From: a virus
Taxonomy: Duplodnaviria; Heunggongvirae; Uroviricota; Caudoviricetes
Virus record (IMG/VR): IMGVR_UViG_2737471828_000010
Coordinates: 1 to 12,573 of that record
Length of the DNA: 12,573 nt
Strand: one strand, 5' to 3'
Below are positions 2,994 to 12,055 of this stretch, piece after piece; the stretch's first letter is position 1; the number at the start of each line of letters is the position of its first letter. The notes under the pieces were generated by a model. That model was not told where the DNA came from, did not search any database, and worked only from the letters and a program-made list of their open reading frames with translations. The translations under genes and the position numbers were made by a program.

Positions 2994-3007
2994 ATGGAGA
3001 GTAAGTG

Positions 3008-6000
3008 ATGGGTAAAGGTGGCGGTAAGGCGCATACGCCCCGTGAAGCCAGAGATAACCTGAAATCCTCCCAGTTGCTGAGTGTGATTGACGCCATCAGT
3101 GAAGGACCGGTTTATGGTCCGGTTGACGGGCTGAAAAGTGTCCGCCTGAATGGTACGCCGGTACTGGACAGCGGGGGGAATACCAACTTTTCCGGTGTCA
3201 CGGTGGTGTTCCGTTCCGGTGAACAGGAGCAGACACCGCCGGAGGGGTTTGAATCCTCCGGCTCCGAGACGGTACTGGGTGCGGAAGTGAAATACGACAC
3301 GCCGATAACCCGGACCATCACGTCGGCAAACATCGACCGTCTGCGCCTGACCTTCGGGGTGCAGGCACTGGTGAAAACCACCTCAAAGGGGGACAGGGAG
3401 CCGTCGGAAGTCCGCCTGCTGGTTCAGATACAGCGTAATGGTGGCTGGGTGACGGAAAAAGACATCACCATTAAGGGCAAAACCACCTCGCAGTATCTGG
3501 CATCGGTGGTGGTGGATAACCTGCCGCCGCGCCCGTTTAATATCCGGATGCGCAGGATAACGCCGGACAGCACCACGGACCAGTTGCAGAACAAAACGGT
3601 CTGGTCGTCATACACCGAAATCATCGATGTGAAACAGTGCTACCCGAACACGGCACTGGTCGGTGTGCAGGTGGATTCTGAGCAGTTCGGCAGCCAGCAG
3701 GTGAACCGCACTTACCATTTTCGTGGTCGTATTCTGCAGGTTCCGTCGAACTATAACCCGCAGACGCGGCAATACAGCGGTATCTGGGACGGAACGTTAA
3801 AACCGGCATACAGCAACAACCCGGCCTGGTGTCTGTGGGATATGCTGACCCACCCGCGCTACGGCATGGGGAAACGTCTTGGTGCGGCAGATGTGGATAA
3901 ATGGGCGCTGTATGTCATCGGCCAGTACTGCGACCAGTCAGTGCCGGACGGTTTTGGCGGCACGGAGCCGCGCATCACCTGTAATGCCTGGCTGACCACA
4001 CAACGTAAGGCGTGGGATGTGCTCAGCGATTTCTGCTCGGCGATGCGCTGTATGCCGGTATGGAACGGGCAGACGCTGACGTTCGTGCAGGACCGGCCAT
4101 CGGATAAGGTGTGGACCTATAACCGCAGTAATGTGGCGATGCCGGGTGATGGCGCGCCGTTCCGCTACAGCTTCAGCGCCCTGAAGGACCGCCATAATGC
4201 CGTTGAGGTGAACTGGATTGACCCTGACAACGGCCAGGAGACGGCGACAGAGCTTGTGGAGGACACGCAGGCCATTGCCCGTTACGGTCGTAACGTCACG
4301 AAGATGGATGCCTTTGGCTGTACCAGTCGTGGGCAGGCGCACCGCGCCGGGCTGTGGCTGATTAAAACAGAACTGCTGGAAACGCAGACCGTGGACTTCA
4401 GCGTGGGTGCTGAAGGGCTTCGCCATGTACCGGGCGATGTCATTGAAATCTGCGATGATGACTATGCCGGTATCAGCACCGGCGGGCGCGTGCTGGCGGT
4501 AAACAGCCAGACCCGGACGCTGACGCTCGACCGTGAAATCACGCTGCCATCCTCCGGTACCACGCTGATAAGCCTGGTTGACGGAAGTGGCAATCCGGTC
4601 AGCGTGGAGGTCCAGTCCGTCACCGACGGCGTGAAGGTAAAAGTGAGCCGTGTTCCTGACGGCGTTGCAGAATACAGCGTGTGGGGGCTGAAGCTGCCGA
4701 CGCTGCGTCAGCGCCTGTTTCGCTGTGTGAGTATCCGTGAGAACGATGACGGCACGTATGCCATCACCGCCGTGCAGCATGTACCGGCAAAAGAGGCCAT
4801 CGTGGATAACGGGGCGCACTTTGACGGCGACCAGAGCGGCACGGTGAATGGTGTCACGCCGCCAGCGGTGCAGCACCTGACTGCCGAAGTCACCGCAGAC
4901 AGCGGGGAATATCAGGTGCTGGCGCGCTGGGACACGCCGAAGGTGGTGAAGGGGGTGAGCTTCCTGCTCCGTCTGACCGTAACAGCGGACGAAGGCAGTG
5001 AGCGGCTGGTCAGCACGGCCCGGACGACGGAAACCACATACCGCTTCACGCAACTGGCGCTGGGGAACTACAGGCTGACAGTCCGGGCGGTAAATGCGTG
5101 GGGACAGCAGGGCGATCCGGCATCGGTATCGTTCCGGATTGCCGTACCAGCAGCGCCGTCGCGGATTGAGCTGACACCGGGCTATTTTCAGATAACCGCC
5201 ACGCCGCATCTTGCGGTTTATGATCCGACGGTGCAGTTTGAGTTCTGGTTCTCGGAAAAGCGGATTGCGGATATCAGGCAGGTTGAAACCAGCGCGCGTT
5301 ATCTTGGTACGGCGCTGTACTGGATAGCCGCCAGTATCAATATCAAACCGGGCCATGATTATTACTTTTATATCCGCAGTGTGAACACCGTTGGCAAATC
5401 GGCATTCGTGGAGGCTGTTGGTCAGCCGAGTGATGATGCATCCGGTTATCTGGATTTTTTCAAAGGCGAGATAGGGAAAACCCATCTGGCTCAGGAGCTG
5501 TGGACGCAGATTGATAACGGTCAGCTTGCGCCTGACCTGGCTGAAATCAGGACGTCCATTACGGATGTCAGCAATGAAATCACACAGACCGTCAATAAGA
5601 AACTGGAAGACCAGAGTGCAGCGATCCAGCAGATACAGAAGGTTCAGGTTGATACAAATAATAATCTGAACAGCATGTGGGCTGTGAAGCTGCAACAGAT
5701 GAAGGACGGACGCCTTTATATTGCGGGTATCGGTGCCGGTATTGAGAATACGCCAGCAGGAATGCAGAGTCAGGTGCTGCTGGCGGCAGACAGGATTGCG
5801 ATGATTAATCCTGCGAATGGCAACACAAAGCCGATGTTTGTTGGTCAGGGTGATCAGATATTCATGAATGAAGTGTTCCTGAAATATCTGACGGCTCCCA
5901 CCATTACCAGTGGCGGTAATCCTCCGGCGTTTTCCCTGACTCCGGACGGGCGGCTGACGGCGAAAAATGCGGATATCAGCGGTAACGTGAACGCGAACTC

Positions 6001-6487
6001 CGGGACACTCAACAACGTCACGATAAATGAGAACTGCCGGATTCTGGGAAAACTGTCAGCCAACCAGATTGAAGGCGATATTGTTAAAACAGTGGGTAAG
6101 GCTTTTCCCCGGGACTCCCGGGCACCGGAGCGGTGGCCATCAGGGACCATTACCGTCAGGGTTTATGACGATCAGCCGTTTGACCGGCAAATTGTTATTC
6201 CGGCGGTGGCATTCAGTGGCGCTAAGCATGAGAGAGAGCATACTGATATTTACTCCTCATGCCGTCTGATAGTGCGGAAAAACGGTGCTGAAATTTATAA
6301 CCGTACCGCGCTGGATAATACGCTGATTTACAGTGGTGTTATTGATATGCCAGCAGGCAGAGGTGTAATGACACTGGAGTTTTCGGTATCAGCATGGCTG
6401 GTGAATAACTGGTATCCCACCGCAAGTATCAGCGATTTGCTGGTTGTGGTGATGAAAAAATCCACAGCCGGTATCACGATTAGCTGA
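3008..6487 (+). CDS. J: Tail tip / host specificity protein J (central tail fiber)
   Basis: About 1159 aa. The N-terminus [34 protein letters not shown]... and most of the length are closely similar to lambda gpJ as I recall it. The ORF track begins at GTG 3005, but ATG 3008 with GGAGAG 6 nt upstream is the more likely start. The last ~150 aa and a block near nt 5460-5700 diverge from lambda. Confidence 0.93.
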
Positions 6488-6505
6488 ATTTTATAATCCA
6501 TATAC

Positions 6506-6531
6506 TGGCGCCAGAAATGGCGCCTTTTTTA
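6506..6531 (+). terminator. Intrinsic terminator downstream of J
   Basis: Palindromic stem GGCGCC (6507..6512) / GGCGCC (6519..6524) with loop agaaat, followed by TTTTTT (6525..6530), 20 nt after the J stop. Confidence 0.65.
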
Positions 6532-6584
6532 TTGTTATTCCTGAATCCTCTCTTCCGGGGCTGACATTGACTTATGGAGTACAT

Positions 6585-8306
6585 ATGGCCGTACAGATAT
6601 CTGGTGTACTGAAAGACGGTGCGGGTAAACCGGTGCAGGCGTGTTCAATTGAATTGCGGTCCAGAAAAACGAGTCCGACGGTGATTGTGCACATTGTGGC
6701 GGAATGTATTACGGACAGTAACGGGCGGTATTTAATCGAAGCCGAGCCAGGATTTTATGATGTTTTTCTTCTCCGTGAAGGGTGGGCTCCGGTAAAAGCC
6801 GGTGAGATTTATGTCACACCGACGGATAAGCCGGATACGCTGAATGCATTTCTGGATGCTCCCAAAGATGGCGATTTGCGTCCTGAGGTGATGAAACGCT
6901 TTGAGATAATGGTGAATACCGTTATTACGCTGTCTGAGCAGGTTACCCGTGATAAGGAGGCAACAGGCGCAGACGCCGCGGCAGCGGCAGAATCGGCGTC
7001 CGCTGCCCGGGAAAGTGAAAGGAAATCGCAGAATTATGAGGTGCAGTCTCAGAAAAATGCAGAGTCTGCAGCCGGAAGTGCGCAGGAGGCCGGACAATAT
7101 GCTGTGGAGGCTGCACAGGCAAGAGATAATACGCAGACCCTTGCTGATGCGGTGCAGAAAAATGCAGAGGTTGTGGCAGAACAGCGTCAGCAGGTGAATA
7201 TACTGGCTGCAGAAATGGCAGAAAATGCCGGACAGGTTCAGCAGGATAAACAGGATACTGAGCGGCTGCTGGAGCAGGCACAACAGGCAGCCAGTGAGTC
7301 TTCAGCCAGTGCCGTGGAGTCGGGGACGCATGCCAGCGAAGCTGCACAGAGTGCACGGCAGGTAAGCAGTGATTTACAGAAGACGGTAACGGCACGTAAT
7401 GAGGCAGAGGGTTTTGCCACAGAGGCCGCCAGTCGTGCAGAAGAGAGTGCACAGATAAAAGCGCAGACGGAGTCCGTGGCTCTGAATGTTCAGCATGTGG
7501 CAGACAGTGTTGTGGCTGTAAGCCAGTCTGTGGAGCTACAGGCCGGGCAGGTGCAGCAACTGGTCAGCCAGGCGGAAGACAGTGCCACGACAGCAGGTGA
7601 ACATGAGCAGGGGGCACTGAAGGCACTGGAGGAGGCCAGGGAGATTGCAAAAACGCCAGGACCACAGGGAGAGCCAGGACCGCAGGGGGAGACCGGCCCA
7701 CAGGGCCCCAGTGGTGAAAAGGGAGAGAAAGGGGACCGGGGCGATACCGGGCCTCAGGGAGAAAAAGGTGAGAAAGGCGATAAAGGTGATACCGGTGCCC
7801 GGGGAGCTACCGGCCCACAGGGGCCTCAGGGACCCATGGGACCCAGCGGAGTTTACCCGGAAGACGGGATAAAGACTGCGAAAAAATTCACGGGTATTCT
7901 GGCTCATGGTTTTATGTATTCTGACCTTCAGTTTCCGTTGCTGAAATATAACCACTACCTTGCCTGTGAAGACCACCCCGTTCCGGGTGCCGCGGGAAAT
8001 TATTCGTATGGTCTGATGTGGCAGGTTCCGACGAATGAGAATGTTTCAGGTCAGATTTTCCTTAACTGTATGGGACAGGCATTCATCAGGGCTTACAGCG
8101 GACTGGGTACCACTTCATGGTGGCAGTTTGCCGGTCGTCCGGTAGCCGGTGGTGTGGGGAGTTACCTGTTCTGTGCTTCTCAGGATGCGGTCAGTTACGG
8201 AGATGAACTGGCCGGAGAGCGGCTTGACCCGGTACAGTCAGGAATATGGATGGCCTGCGGAAATGCAGAAGCTGAAGAGAAAATGCTTTTTCTGAGGGTG
8301 AAATAA
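6585..8306 (+). CDS. stf: Side tail fiber protein (Stf-like) with an Ala/Gln/Glu-rich shaft, a collagen-like tract and a distinct C-terminal domain
   Basis: N-terminus [24 protein letters not shown]... resembles the lambda Stf N-terminus ([17 protein letters not shown]...). ATG 6585 has GGAG 5 nt upstream; the track start TTG 6567 is less likely. Residues ~125-360 form a low-complexity A/Q/E/S-rich region, and the C-terminal ~150 aa is a globular-looking domain I cannot assign. Confidence 0.8.
7659..7850 (+). repeat. Collagen-like Gly-X-Y repeat tract (64 residues) inside the tail fiber gene
   Basis: Uninterrupted G-X-Y periodicity, [64 protein letters not shown], visible in the DNA as repeated ggN-ccN-cag and ggN-gaN-aaa units. 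Confidence 0.85.
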
Positions 8307-8917
8307 TGGATACCAGGAATTCAGAAGCGGACGTGCGCAATGCCCGTTTTAATGAAGACGGCAGCATTACCTGTGAGGTGTTCATGGCAGACCGTTCTGA
8401 TGACAGTCATCGGGTATATGTACCTTATACTGCCAGAGCTTCAGACCCGACAGAATTCGGGTTAAGGCTCTGGTCAGGACTGATATCAGGGGACCTTGGT
8501 GAAGTCACGCCGTTTGTGGTGACAGAGGAGATACTGGAAAAGGCCAGAAATCAGAAATACGGTGAAATCAGTCGCTGGCGTGACAGCCAGGAGAACAGCA
8601 GTTTTGTTTTTGAATTCAGTGGTCATCGCTGGGATGCCGGAAAGGCGTCACAGTCCAGACTGACACCTGTTGTTGCGGTGGCAGGAAACGGGCTGTTGCC
8701 GGAGCATTTTTTCTGGACGGATGCGGATAATCAGGATGTCACTCTGACGCCGGAAGAGCTGATACAACTGGATACTGCGATGAATGCGGCGATGGTGATG
8801 CAGGGGTTTAAAATCCACGAACGCCAGCGCCGGATGAAAGAAGAAGTGGCAGGGCTGACCGCACTGCCGGATATTCGTGCGTATCCTGTTGGCTGGCCGG
8901 AGGGTGATGATGAGTAA
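8306..8917 (+). CDS. Putative tail fiber assembly protein (Tfa-like chaperone)
   Basis: 203 aa ORF whose ATG overlaps the fiber stop (TAATG at 8304..8308), with a GAGGGTG ribosome binding site upstream. Position immediately after the fiber gene and a C-terminal segment (...TPEELIQLDTAMNAAMVMQGFKIHERQRRMKEEVAGLTALPDIRAYPVGWPE) reminiscent of Tfa C-termini. Assigned by context plus weak similarity. Confidence 0.6.
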   Translation: MDTRNSEADVRNARFNEDGSITCEVFMADRSDDSHRVYVPYTARASDPTEFGLRLWSGLISGDLGEVTPFVVTEEILEKARNQKYGEISRWRDSQENSSFVFEFSGHRWDAGKASQSRLTPVVAVAGNGLLPEHFFWTDADNQDVTLTPEELIQLDTAMNAAMVMQGFKIHERQRRMKEEVAGLTALPDIRAYPVGWPEGDDE

Positions 8918-9290
8918 GTTCACCACACCGGCCATTCTGGAGATGCTGGATGATTACCGCTGGCGGCTGGTTGAGCCGTTTGAATTCTGGCTGACGGATA
9001 ACCCGGATGATGTGATTTATGTTCCGGAGGGATATGTGACGGACCTTGCCAGTGTGCCACGGCTTCTGTGGGCTCTGTTCCCGCCGCATGGTCGTTATGC
9101 GAAAGCGGCGATTATTCATGACTGGCTGTATGACAATGCCCTGCGCACGAAGGCGGAAGCGGACAGGATATTTCTGGATGCGATGACGGTGCTGGGAGTT
9201 CCACGCTGGCGCAGACGGTTGATGTATCTTGCGGTAAGGTTGTTCGGGAAAGGGAAATACAGCGACACGCAACAGGGGACCTGTTGCTGA
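8907..9290 (+). CDS. DUF1353-like small protein (tail-fiber-associated, function unknown)
   Basis: About 127 aa from the ATG pair at 8907/8910, with GGAGGG at 8899..8904, overlapping the stop of the preceding gene. Translation MMSKFTTPAILEMLDDYRWRLVEPFEFWLTD...YVTDLASVPRLLWALFPPHGRYAKAAIIHDWLY resembles the DUF1353 signature as I remember it. The track start GTG 8877 is less likely. Confidence 0.55.
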   Translation: MMSKFTTPAILEMLDDYRWRLVEPFEFWLTDNPDDVIYVPEGYVTDLASVPRLLWALFPPHGRYAKAAIIHDWLYDNALRTKAEADRIFLDAMTVLGVPRWRRRLMYLAVRLFGKGKYSDTQQGTCC

Positions 9291-9493: not shown

Positions 9494-9529
9494 ATATGTG
9501 TTACTGACTGGTATTGCCTGTTCACCTGG
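9494..9529. repeat. ~36 nt repeat, copy 1 of 2 (atatgtgttactgactggtattgcctgttcacctgg)
   Basis: Matches 10569..10609, which carries a short internal insertion (ccacg/accacgt). Both copies are in the ORF-poor AT-rich region. Confidence 0.6.
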
Positions 9530-9564
9530 TCTGTGAAGATATGCAACATGGCCCATGTTGTAGC

Positions 9565-9597
9565 AAAAAAAGCCTGCCATACAGATATATGGCAGGC
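9565..9597 (-). terminator. Leftward intrinsic terminator candidate (H2, paralog of H1)
   Basis: Stem GCCTGCCATA / TATGGCAGGC with loop cagata, preceded on + by seven A's. On the - strand this reads as a GC stem followed by TTTTTTT. Same stem as H1 with a 1-nt loop difference. Confidence 0.6.
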
Positions 9598-9805
9598 AAA
9601 CGTCTGTTACGGGAAAACAAATGAATGTCGGGTATAGTACCCCCTTACTTGACTCCTTCACAATTATGCATCAATAATGAAACATATAAAGCATTTGTAT
9701 TTTCTTATTGCTGGTTTTGTGTATTGCGTCTCAAAACTAAATTATTTTATTACTCTCATAATAAATGAGGTAAATTATATATATAGTTATTTATTCTGTT
9801 TTTAT

Positions 9806-9834
9806 AAAAAGAAGCCCACAGATTACTGTGGGCT
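9806..9834 (-). terminator. Leftward intrinsic terminator candidate (H3)
   Basis: Stem AGCCCACAG / CTGTGGGCT with loop atta, preceded on + by tataaaaagaa (a U-rich tail on the - strand). Confidence 0.55.
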
Positions 9835-10085
9835 AAGCATTAGCATTATTTATATTAGTATAGTTACGGTTGCTGTAAGCATATTAGCTTACGGAAATGT
9901 TGATAACTCTGATGGGAATCACAAAAAAATACCAGTGCTGAAAATGACAGTACTGGTAAAAATATGATGAGTATTTGCAAAAAATACAACCGAATTGCTC
10001 TGTAAGGTTCACTACCTCTTTTATTCTACTATAAATTATAGTACATAGTTCTGTGATACTTATCACGCTGTATATTCATTGGTAT

Positions 10086-10110
10086 AAAAAGGCCCGTATG
10101 GATACGGGCC
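10086..10110 (-). terminator. Leftward intrinsic terminator candidate (H4)
   Basis: Stem GGCCCGTA / TACGGGCC with loop tgga, preceded on + by tataaaaa. Confidence 0.55.
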
Positions 10111-10207
10111 TGGCTTACGGGATAGGCTAACTGAGTAAGTAGGGTTATGGCTTACTCGCCGGCAGTATACCATATAAAACAACGGACAATTCTTTGCGGT
10201 AAATCAT

Positions 10208-10236
10208 AAAAAAAGACCCGTACCGTACGTGCGGGT
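10208..10236 (-). terminator. Leftward intrinsic terminator candidate (H5)
   Basis: Stem ACCCGTAC / GTGCGGGT (one non-Watson-Crick position) with loop cgtac, preceded on + by seven A's. Confidence 0.45.
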
Positions 10237-10354
10237 GTTAATTGCTGGTGAAGCTGTCAGAGGTGCATATTATTATAATAACGCTTGTAGACGTTTGTTA
10301 TTATTTATGCCCTCTATTACTGGTACTGTGATTTCCATCACAAAAATACATTAT

Positions 10355-10382
10355 AAAAAGAAAGCCCGCAGATTATGCGGGC
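10355..10382 (-). terminator. Leftward intrinsic terminator candidate (H6, paralog of H3)
   Basis: Stem GCCCGCA / TGCGGGC with loop gatta, preceded on + by tataaaaagaaa. Differs from H3 by a compensatory base-pair change (A-T in H3, G-C in H6). Confidence 0.55.
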
Positions 10383-10401
10383 AATAGCTTATGCATGAGA
10401 T

Positions 10402-10426
10402 GAACGACTCCGGGTCGTTTATTTTT
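10402..10426 (+). terminator. Weak rightward hairpin with T-run (possible + strand terminator)
   Basis: Stem AACGAC / GTCGTT with loop tccgg, followed by tatttttc. Short, AT-rich stem. Confidence 0.3.
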
Positions 10427-10568
10427 CTTAATAAGAAGGACTACATTTATATTCTACTATGTAAGTATGGTATTGATGATGTGAAGTATATCTCAAATTA
10501 ACGCAATAAGAAAAAGCAACAACCCATTTCTGAATGTGAGAGAACTGCTAATATAGCAATATGTGTTC

Positions 10569-11050: not shown

Positions 11051-12055
11051 TCACTGAGTGCCTTCATCTGGTTGCTCTGCTGGTAAGGTTCCAGCCTCTT
11101 CTTCAATTTCCGCATGTTTTCCATCGCTTCCCTGGACAGGTTCATCCCTTGGCGGTTCTGCTCTTCCTGAATTTTGGTCAGAGATTTCATCTCCTTCCTG
11201 AATTCTGCTGTTGTCATGGGAATCTTCCTCTGCGTTAGTTGTTTCATATTGTTTTTTAGGAGTTAAATCTTTAATCACCGGTTTGTCGAAGATAGAGATT
11301 TCGCCTGACGAAATCATCTCACCAAGAACTTCGTACAGGTTGGCTGCAAAGTCTGTAGGACTCTCAACATGGTTGAATAGTTCCCTCGCCTCTTTACGGT
11401 CTATCACAAAACCATGGGCTGGATATCCAGCGATCAACTTGCCTAAGGAGCTTTCCTTAAGATTTTTCGAGTGACTATTCAAACGCTCCCCATAGGAAAG
11501 CGCTATGTTCATTGCTCGTTGATGCTCCCCGAGTTTGATGGGGTCTATCTGTGAGGCCATCGGCGATATGATTGCTTCAGTAAGCTTAGCAGCAATATCT
11601 GCAGACATCTTCGTGCTAATTTGGTTTCTGTACTTTATATCAAGTACGTATGATCTAAAGGTCGAAATAGCGCACTCTTTTATTTCATCAATCGCCGTTG
11701 CGATAACAAGGCCCGAGCTCAATTCGCCGATCTCATCATTTTTCTTAAGTTGGATGTCTAGAGGACCAAGCTCACCCATATCACCAATCACGAGCTTATG
11801 AGCGGCGACAGCCATCAAGGTTCCAGCACTTTTGCAAGGGCCAACAACTAGAACGGTGATGTGTTCATAGTTGTGTTGCAAAGCGCGGCCAATTCTATAT
11901 CCTGCGCTGGGATCACCGCCATAGGTAGCGACGCAAAAAAGAACATTTTTTTGTAAACCATGGTTAGTTTTTCTTTCTTTAATCGCTTTGGTGATGTCGT
12001 GATGACCAGAGCGGTGAACATCGCCTATGTATACGTAAACGTCTGTATCTTGCAT
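11051..12055 (-). CDS. Stand-alone ClpP/SppA-fold serine peptidase-like protein (S49/SDH-like) with an acidic low-complexity C-terminal tail
   Basis: 334 aa ORF with ribosome binding site AGGGA 5 nt upstream of the ATG (- strand). N-terminal ~220 aa follows the ClpP-fold pattern: ATYGGDPSAGYRIGRAL echoes the ClpP NSPGGSVTAG segment, and VVGPCKSAGTLMAVAAHK echoes the ClpP/SppA nucleophile segment (GQAASMG type), giving a candidate catalytic Ser in CKSAG. The last ~70 aa are Asp/Glu-rich and low complexity. No His in the position of the ClpP catalytic His, so a Ser-Lys dyad (SppA-like) is possible. Confidence 0.6.
   Translation of the reverse strand: MQDTDVYVYIGDVHRSGHHDITKAIKERKTNHGLQKNVLFCVATYGGDPSAGYRIGRALQHNYEHITVLVVGPCKSAGTLMAVAAHKLVIGDMGELGPLDIQLKKNDEIGELSSGLVIATAIDEIKECAISTFRSYVLDIKYRNQISTKMSADIAAKLTEAIISPMASQIDPIKLGEHQRAMNIALSYGERLNSHSKNLKESSLGKLIAGYPAHGFVIDRKEARELFNHVESPTDFAANLYEVLGEMISSGEISIFDKPVIKDLTPKKQYETTNAEEDSHDNSRIQEGDEISDQNSGRAEPPRDEPVQGSDGKHAEIEEEAGTLPAEQPDEGTQ

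Follow-up and report, generated by a model that had tools for sequence, protein, structure and literature searches.

The J gene of this prophage encodes a mosaic tail fibre protein, in which most of the chain is lambda-like and the receptor-binding tip belongs to a different allele class. The tip is nearly identical to that of an experimentally tested chimera, the OmpC-dependent gpJ variant 1A2. The receptor of this phage is thus probably OmpC rather than LamB (probability roughly 0.7). The analysis covered a window of 12,573 nucleotides, the whole stretch of viral DNA under study.

Organization of J and its identity profile against lambda

J is a single uninterrupted open reading frame, with an ATG at 3008 and a stop codon ending at 6487. 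A GTG lies at 3005, just before the start codon. The gene follows H, M, L, K and I, and its Pfam domains occur in the same order as in lambda J (FNIII-A_GpJ, Phage-tail_3, Ig_J, Ig_J_second, Phage_Tail_Tip and Ig_GpJ_C), with Ig_GpJ_C at the C-terminus behind the upstream J domains. A phmmer comparison with the lambda J chain (8iyk_J) gave E=0. The J of VT1-Sakai is annotated as truncated by mutation, which suggested that J might also be broken here; the intact reading frame rules this out. A consensus scan placed a terminator-like hairpin behind J; the same element carries a terminator annotation at this place in phage 21, and the alignment shows it to be conserved. No RNA families were detected in the window by an Rfam scan, and PADLOC identified no defence families among the ORFs downstream of J. 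The main features are as follows.

3008..6487, + strand: gene J, central tail fibre/tip attachment protein, 1159 aa, intact (ORF list, translation, Pfam order, phmmer)
3008..5422, + strand: lambda-like hub and FNIII part, aa 1-805 (82-100% amino acid identity blocks; pS 0.12 for aa 632-805)
5423..5842, + strand: second non-lambda module, aa 806-945 (53% amino acid identity to lambda, 28 gap columns, pS 0.74)
5843..6013, + strand: conserved lower fibre segment, aa 946-1002, including NADISG (~90% identity to lambda)
5966..6484, + strand: specificity region, aa 987-1159, equivalent to lambda J residues 960-1132 (by alignment; region defined in PMC6646904)
6507..6534, + strand: hairpin resembling a terminator, downstream of J (GGCGCC-AGAAAT-GGCGCC, then a T run)

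The identity profile was obtained from a MAFFT alignment with lambda J (NC_001416, 1132 aa), counting identities per 50-residue block. Every block within aa 1-800 is 82-100% identical to lambda, and aa 1-805 are ~95% identical overall. The blocks covering aa 801-950 drop to 44%, 30% and 60%, the block at aa 951-1000 recovers to 92%, and those covering aa 1001-1159 fall again to 58%, 46%, 32% and 40%. The departure from lambda at the tip begins at about residue 1003 (nt 6014), and identity over aa 1006-1159 is 44%, compared with 88% over aa 946-1005. The contrast between the tip and the rest of J is far beyond chance. An earlier note on this DNA had proposed that the last ~150 residues diverge from lambda, and the pairwise alignment bears this out; a tip as conserved as the remaining protein is not what it shows (44% against ~95% for aa 1-805). 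The interval proposed there (5957-6487) starts slightly too early, since its first ~55 nt (5957-6013) are still conserved. Apart from these nucleotides, it corresponds to residues 960-1132 of lambda J. The peptide quoted in the note is present. Of the motifs shared with lambda, PFDRQIV matches exactly, and the second is common only as DMPAGRG (VIDMPAGRG in the window, IVDMPAGRG in lambda).

The same note regarded the rest of J as lambda-like, which holds for aa 1-805 but fails for aa 806-945, a segment as divergent from lambda as the tip. This second module, which the note did not mention, is 28 residues longer than its lambda counterpart and corresponds to the alpha-helical shaft and the upper part of the central straight fibre (domain names from PMC11101478). 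Lambda is the outlier here: phage 21, VT1-Sakai, PhiR46_1 and the closest E. coli prophage all have the window's version (96-100% identity to the first three and to the GXU prophage).

Structure and variable loops of the receptor-binding domain

The specificity region aligns end to end with lambda residues 959-1131 and with the gpJ of A8. Its C-terminal portion matches PF12421 (Ig_GpJ_C) over the entire profile (positions 1-135 of 135) with a score of 130.8 bits, against a gathering cut-off of 26.2. A monomer model of this domain was generated with AF2 (pLDDT 82). In Foldseek searches, the model matched 9wcb/9wca (A8 gpJ; E about 1e-19) and 8xck/8xcj (lambda; E about 1e-17), with TM-scores of 0.71-0.74 (8xck: E 6.7e-17, TMq 0.74; 9wcb: E 2.3e-19, TMq 0.71). 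The tip is thus still an Ig_GpJ_C domain, and the structure prediction, suggested earlier as a check on the divergent tip, gives it the Ig-like beta-sandwich fold of the lambda receptor-binding domain (RBD).

Four putative receptor-facing loops were located from AF2 secondary structure, column entropy across homologues and the variability hot spots reported in PMC6646904. Their orientation was judged from strand alternation and variability rather than from coordinates.

6092..6484, + strand: Ig-like receptor-binding domain proper, aa 1029-1159 (Pfam PF12421, AF2, Foldseek)
6101..6142, + strand: putative receptor-facing loop 1, aa 1032-1045, 14 residues (AF2 loop; mean entropy 1.00)
6233..6244, + strand: putative receptor-facing loop 2, aa 1076-1079, REHT (most variable segment, mean entropy 2.06)
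6311..6319, + strand: putative receptor-facing loop 3, aa 1102-1104 (AF2 secondary structure, entropy across homologues)
6401..6436, + strand: putative receptor-facing loop 4, aa 1132-1143, 12 residues (AF2 secondary structure, entropy across homologues)

The lambda variability peaks at residues 1012, 1048-49, 1077-78 and 1107 map to window residues 1039, 1075-76, 1104-05 and 1134, in or beside these four loops. Loop 1 aligns with the peak of variation and indels at lambda residue 1012, loop 2 with the peak at 1048-1049, loop 3 with that at 1077-1078 and loop 4 with that at 1107. Positions 1076-1079, 1118 and 1120 rank with the most variable columns in the family. The last two flank the conserved loop DMPAG, on the face that strand alternation suggests points away from the receptor.

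Several characterised RBDs provide a framework for comparison. The lambda RBD, whose structures include 8xcj and 8xck (Nat Commun 2024, PMC11101478) and which binds LamB, belongs to the same Pfam family, with the same Ig-like fold and C-terminal location on a trimeric central fibre. The motifs DDxPFDRQ and DMPAGRG are conserved between lambda and the window, whereas all four variable loops differ. With only 42% identity over the Ig domain (tblastn), the window allele falls outside a high-identity grouping with the LamB-binding lambda class. The class of A8 gpJ and phage 21 (9wca; 9wcb, with OmpC from EDL933; both known from their PDB titles) has the same fold and aligns over its full length except for two short indels, a 4-residue deletion in loop 1 and a 5-residue insertion in loop 2. 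A8 is 65% identical to the window over the 173-residue segment, and identity to the A8/phage 21 class is 56-59% over the Ig domain. Phage 434 J, from a phage reported to use OmpC (PMC11101478), contains the same C-terminal domain family, but its identity over the Ig domain is only 38-41% (40.3% over 90% of the domain), which makes it a separate allele class. The specificity region of Maddamsetti et al. (Evolution 2018, PMC6646904) matches the window interval; that study does not assign receptors to classes.

Receptor of the window allele

The closest tested relative is the Eligo gpJ chimera '1A2' (Brodel et al., Nature 2024, PMC11338833). The window specificity segment is identical to that of VT1-Sakai (AP000400) and 1A2 at 167 of 173 positions, with six differences (window to 1A2: I1012V, I1025L, R1076K, R1118H, V1120H and S1152A). 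The upstream fusion region is also the same: NADISG, whose glycine is lambda residue 964, is the fusion point of the engineered gpJ chimeras (PMC11338833). The 1A2 and A8 DNA sequences were read from a machine-extracted PDF supplement containing indels, using frameshift-tolerant protein-to-DNA alignment. Five 1A2 codons were unreadable and five more were garbled; the swapped segment equals VT1-Sakai J at every readable codon, including all six distinguishing positions. Three of the four putative specificity loops (1, 3 and 4) are identical to 1A2/VT1-Sakai, while loop 2 differs by a conservative substitution (R1076, K in 1A2).

Exchange of the specificity-region segment is known to retarget lambda (PMC11338833). 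The 1A2 segment, selected on a lamB deletion strain and grafted onto lambda J at residue 964, converts delivery from LamB-dependent to OmpC-dependent, operating through OmpC in cells that lack LamB. It accepts the OmpC of EDL933 (delivery to 98% of cells carrying this allele) and not that of K-12 MG1655 (all PMC11338833; receptor evidence from the main text, Fig. 1b data and Extended Data Fig. 8a data). In the text version consulted, the source-data sheet of Extended Data Fig. 2c appears identical to panel b. Because the window allele belongs to the VT1-Sakai/1A2 class, OmpC is its most likely receptor, and EDL933-like alleles of this porin are probably preferred over that of K-12. The complex of the 65%-identical A8 RBD with OmpC (9wcb) indicates that this fold can bind the porin. 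If the assignment is correct, at least three classes have evolved OmpC use. For the PhiR, Chlobot and 2G7b phages, which have the same RBD class, a search of the literature for receptor data returned nothing relevant.

Receptor specificity in this family is labile, and the six differences from 1A2 could redirect recognition towards a different porin (OmpF, for example) or a different set of OmpC alleles. Phage 21 natively uses LamB, gaining OmpC by one mutation and OmpF by further mutations, and lambda gains OmpF by four (PMC6646904), so that one to four substitutions are sufficient to alter receptor use. A8 and 1A2 accept different sets among 23 OmpC alleles (PMC11338833), and K-12 OmpC is accepted by A8 but not by 1A2. 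Other features also fit such a shift: R1076K falls on a known hot spot (lambda residue 1049), residues 1076-1079, 1118 and 1120 are the highly variable columns noted above, and the RGV patch came from another sublineage (see below). On the other hand, loops 1, 3 and 4 are unchanged, the exchange in loop 2 is conservative, and strand alternation would direct residues 1118 and 1120 away from the receptor. We consider such a shift unlikely.

Continued binding to LamB, possibly to another LamB allele, with the divergence merely tracking host LamB variation, appears less probable still. Lambda and phage 21, two characterised Ig_GpJ_C members, natively use LamB, and the fold is unchanged. However, identity over aa 1006-1159 is only 44% to lambda and 69% to the phage 21 RBD, and the near-identical 1A2, besides its selection on a lamB deletion and its dependence on OmpC, delivers to only 5% of LamB+ K-12 MG1655 cells at an MOI of 50 (Extended Data Fig. 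2a, PMC11338833). The earlier note had envisaged either a different outer-membrane receptor or a LamB variant; the near-identity to 1A2 supports that expectation as a whole, and the poor delivery on MG1655 makes the LamB variant the less likely of the two.

The J tip sets which outer-membrane protein is required and, with it, which strains the phage infects. Assignment to the OmpC-dependent 1A2 class would therefore provide a concrete prediction of host range.

Recombination and origin of the tip

The J tip was exchanged by recombination of old alleles, and not by fast local evolution, because synonymous differences from lambda jump from 0.12 per site (pS, aa 632-805) to 0.73 (aa 1006-1159) at the swapped modules. 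The GC content also drops at the swapped tip, from 0.56-0.62 to 0.48. In megablast, lambda-like phages and phage 21 match only as far as window position 6036 or 6108, while the matches to other phages run to 6534. A three-sequence test of informative sites further revealed breakpoints within the tip.

6107..6165, no strand assigned: recombination junction relative to the closest genome, GXU-like upstream and VT1-Sakai-like downstream (informative sites)
6352..6367, no strand assigned: short GXU-like patch in the VT1-Sakai-like RBD, codons 1116-1120, AGRGV (nine consecutive GXU-type informative sites)

Over 5308-6106, 53 of 54 informative sites are GXU-like, and only 2 mismatches to GXU occur within 5300-6120; over 6166-6338, 26 of 28 are VT1-Sakai-like. 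The short patch accounts for R1118 and V1120, both of which are histidine in 1A2, and a runs permutation test on the informative sites of the RBD gave P<5e-5. The DNA of the RBD is thus itself a patchwork of two sublineages. Tail-tip mosaicism, as proposed from the sequence at the outset, is substantiated by saturation of pS in the swapped modules only, by the ends of the megablast matches and by these breakpoints.

That the tip diverged where it stands, from a lambda-like ancestor under rapid positive selection and without recombination, is very improbable: J residues 960-1132 are known to undergo diversifying selection (PMC6646904), but synonymous divergence is unequal along J and saturated only where modules were swapped, dN/dS is ~0.2, the boundaries are sharp and common to other phages, and the same allele class occurs in phages of unrelated background, Stx phages and P-EibA among them.

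The J gene combines a lambda-like hub and FNIII part with another allele class of the Ig_GpJ_C domain in its last ~155 residues, introduced through homologous recombination in the conserved segment immediately before it. Three RBD copies would be located at the fibre tip, as they are in lambda, where the four variable loops might insert into a trimeric outer-membrane porin, binding of which would trigger opening of the tail.

The window allele can also be viewed as a natural hybrid, a 1A2/VT1-Sakai-type RBD with an imported RGV patch and R1076. Exchange of short patches among co-resident J copies could conceivably create porin-allele specificities routinely, a rather speculative proposal under which the allele would recognise an OmpC set, or a porin, different from that of 1A2. 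E. coli genomes with any J copy carry it at a median of 2 places, and at up to 11.

Earlier work has already described mosaicism of the J specificity region, the 1A2 allele class and the receptor of that class, and existing knowledge is unchanged by this example. The swapped tip is an ordinary case of phage tail mosaicism, of a common and already studied version, and the window allele is new but of a known type. It adds a natural variant to the set used for retargeting lambda-based delivery particles. The RBD type is widespread: of the complete E. coli genomes, about 62% have it.

Divergence of J from lambda and fold of its tip

The J gene encodes the lambda-type central tail fibre protein, whose C-terminal tip is the receptor-binding domain (RBD). 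It contains a complete domain series as in lambda J (FNIII-A_GpJ, Phage-tail_3, Ig_J, Ig_J_second, Phage_Tail_Tip and Ig_GpJ_C in Pfam). The features discussed below are:

3008–6487: J, from an ATG to a stop ending at 6487, 1159 aa, intact ORF
5423–5842: second non-lambda module of J, residues 806–945, 28 aa longer than the lambda counterpart

Pairwise protein alignment with the actual lambda J sequence, scored per 50-residue block, gave identities of 82–100% for residues 1–800, 44%, 30% and 60% for residues 801–950 (with 28 extra residues in the window), 92% for residues 951–1000, and 58%, 46%, 32% and 40% for residues 1001–1159. The alignment confirms the earlier note's observation that the C-terminal part is less conserved than most of J. 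The divergence starts at about residue 1003 (nt 6014), slightly inside the proposed interval of 5957–6487. The peptide quoted in the note is present in J, with PFDRQIV common to lambda exactly, and the second quoted motif is shared as DMPAGRG. The view that the rest of J is lambda-like holds for residues 1–800 but not for the module at 806–945.

This module is common to phage 21, VT1-Sakai, PhiR46_1 and the GXU prophage (in E. coli GXU-23-25-310, the closest complete genome) at 96–100% amino acid identity, and lambda is the outlier. In the lambda tail structure it corresponds to the alpha-helical shaft and the upper end of the central straight fibre, and the shaft flips upon receptor binding (PMC11101478). 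A shaft longer than that of lambda may alter fibre length or triggering.

The J tip is a known domain: residues 1029–1159 match PF12421 (Ig_GpJ_C) end to end (130.8 bits), and phmmer aligned residues 987–1159 end to end with both lambda J 959–1131 and the PDB chain "A8 gpJ 713". The AlphaFold2 (AF2) model of residues 987–1159 (pLDDT 82) shows an eight- or nine-stranded beta-sandwich. A Foldseek search with this model matched 9wca and 9wcb (E 2.3e-19 and 65% identity for 9wcb), the latter titled [quoted passage not shown], as well as the lambda RBD (8xck and 8xcj; E ~1e-17, 48–49% identity). In a phage collection search, the Ig domain forms discrete classes by identity to the window:

Window class: 80–98%, most 95–98% (57 records); Stx2a phages, VT1-Sakai, P-EibA, PPompW phages, PhiR5_1, PhiR46_1
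Phage 21/A8 class: 56–59%; phage ev017, Stx phages
Lambda class: 42%; lambda, HK630, O276
Phage 434 class: 38–41%; 434, cdtI, mEp332

The window's allele class is very common: of 5426 complete E. coli genomes, 3342 contain matches covering at least 80% of its Ig-domain DNA, and genomes with any match have a median of two such places. In none of the 5426 does nucleotide identity to the window allele go above 95.4%; the closest protein cluster reaches 96–97%, and the closest phage record 97.7% across the Ig domain. The allele in the window is thus a new one within a class already known and functionally characterised. Hypervariability and recombination in this region of J have already been published, and the divergence of the tip is a correct but ordinary finding.

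Receptor of the J tip

In the work of Brodel et al. (Nature 2024, PMC11338833), C-terminal segments from naturally occurring gpJ variants were joined to lambda gpJ after residue 964. Their screen in a lamB deletion strain yielded two OmpC users, A8 and 1A2; A8 is served by OmpC of both MG1655 and EDL933, and 1A2 by that of EDL933 but not of MG1655 (PMC11338833). Delivery by 1A2 at an MOI of 50 reached 5% of LamB+ MG1655 cells, and ~98% in MG1655 with EDL933 OmpC (source data, PMC11338833). The supplementary DNA of both chimeras, recoded and damaged by text extraction, was read with a protein-to-DNA alignment that tolerates frameshifts. At every readable codon, the C-terminal 173 residues of 1A2 are those of VT1-Sakai J. 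The window segment is 96.5% identical to 1A2, with six differences (window first: I1012V, I1025L, R1076K, R1118H, V1120H and S1152A). A8 falls in the class of phage 21, with 65% identity to the window. The diverged segment is therefore almost exactly that which experimentally suffices to shift lambda from LamB to OmpC. Judged by this similarity, the receptor is most likely OmpC (probability roughly 0.7), with EDL933-like alleles probably favoured over that of K-12.

Lambda J 960–1132 has been named the "specificity region" (Maddamsetti et al., Evolution 2018, PMC6646904), and substitutions and indels peak there at four places, lambda residues 1012, 1048–49, 1077–78 and 1107. With an offset of +27, these fall at window residues 1039, 1075–76, 1104–05 and 1134. 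In the AF2 secondary structure, a first loop set (1032–1045, 1076–1079, 1102–1104 and 1132–1143), variable among 28 homologues (mean entropy 1.00, 2.06, 1.06 and 0.82), alternates with a conserved second set (1055–1059, 1092–1093 and 1115–1118; 0.43, 0.00 and 0.52). From topology and variability, rather than coordinates, we infer that the first set is the counterpart of L1–L4, the four bottom loops that enter the porin in the lambda–LamB structure (PMC11101478). Candidate loops 1, 3 and 4 have the same residues as in 1A2, and R1076K is the sole difference in loop 2; a shift in porin or allele range through the six differences seems rather unlikely. Continued use of LamB is somewhat more doubtful still.

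The main caveat to OmpC as the receptor is the documented lability of this RBD family. Phage 21 natively uses LamB, gained OmpC by one J mutation and OmpF later; four mutations bring lambda to OmpF (PMC6646904); and A8 and 1A2 differ in the OmpC alleles they accept (PMC11338833). By homology with lambda, the three RBDs at the fibre tip would push the variable loops into a porin trimer, most likely OmpC for the window allele. The RBD base would then open, the change would travel up the beta-prism, and the helical shaft would flip, opening the tail tip for DNA ejection.

Recombination within J

Nei-Gojobori counts against lambda over the last 528 codons gave synonymous differences per site (pS) of 0.12 (residues 632–805), 0.74 (806–945), 0.50 (946–1005) and 0.73 (1006–1159), with dN/dS ~0.1–0.2 throughout. 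Silent sites are saturated only in the two modules, 806–945 and the tip, which indicates that old alleles were swapped in; this bears out the mosaicism proposed earlier and contradicts divergence of the tip in place, a very improbable alternative. GC drops from 0.56–0.62 to ~0.48 in the tip. In megablast, similarity to lambda-like phages and to phage 21 stops at 6036 or 6108; matches to PhiR46_1, Chlobot, PhiR70_1 and 2G7b run on to 6534.

The window differs from GXU at 2 positions in 5300–6120 and at ~8% of positions beyond 6121. A three-way analysis of the window, GXU and VT1-Sakai found 53 of 54 informative sites GXU-like in 5308–6106, 26 of 28 VT1-Sakai-like in 6166–6338, nine consecutive GXU-like sites in 6352–6367 (codons 1116–1120, AGRGV), and mostly VT1-Sakai-like sites again in 6385–6409. 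This patchwork (runs permutation test, P<5e-5) indicates that the RBD itself is a mosaic of two sublineages. R1118 and V1120, which flank the conserved DMPAG loop, stem from the imported GXU-like patch.

Gene layout of the window

The prophage is lambdoid, and the window covers its right-hand end, in the order H (end), M, L, K, I, J, a side-tail-fibre gene and two tail-fibre accessory genes. After an AT-rich stretch come the gene for a ClpP-like protease and dinI. The order is the same in GXU-23-25-310, where an integrase adjoining dusA follows; whole-window identity to that genome is only 96.3%.

Within 6567–9290: side-tail-fibre gene, 579 aa, N-terminal domain like that of lambda Stf, collagen repeats at residues 365–423
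Within 6567–9290, 3' of the preceding: DUF4376 protein (phrog_1141), then DUF1353 tail assembly chaperone (phrog_1158)
9677–9967: sole ORF candidate in the AT-rich stretch, 96 aa, hydrophobic
11051–12055, minus strand: SDH-family ClpP-like serine protease, 334 aa, weak Pfam PF01972
12325–12573, minus strand: DinI-like gene (phrog_189), at the window edge

The K (1633–2376) and I (2274–2951) ORFs overlap by ~100 nt (2274–2376) if I uses its first ATG, as annotated in phage 21 and VT1-Sakai; the GXU record has a later I start. The side-tail-fibre gene comes immediately after the J terminator hairpin (6507–6524). The lom gene, which lambda, PhiR46_1 and VT1-Sakai carry between J and stf, is absent 3' of J (6488–6566), and likeness to these phages stops at ~6534. 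The side-tail-fibre gene is a second host-range determinant with an uncharacterised distal part, its C-terminal ~140 aa giving no family match.

The AT-rich stretch (9500–10500; GC 0.34–0.37 versus 0.5–0.6 in the tail genes) has the look of inserted foreign DNA or of a moron-type region. It yielded no convincing ORF and no Rfam match, and the 96-aa candidate had no Pfam, PHROG or PADLOC match. The protease matches phrog_21683 (function unknown) over its full length and gave no PADLOC match. It lies at the prophage end between the tail-fibre genes and dinI, a typical site of accessory or defence cargo. In the closest genome, the DinI-like gene is followed by a tyrosine integrase and dusA, an arrangement that suggests attachment at dusA.
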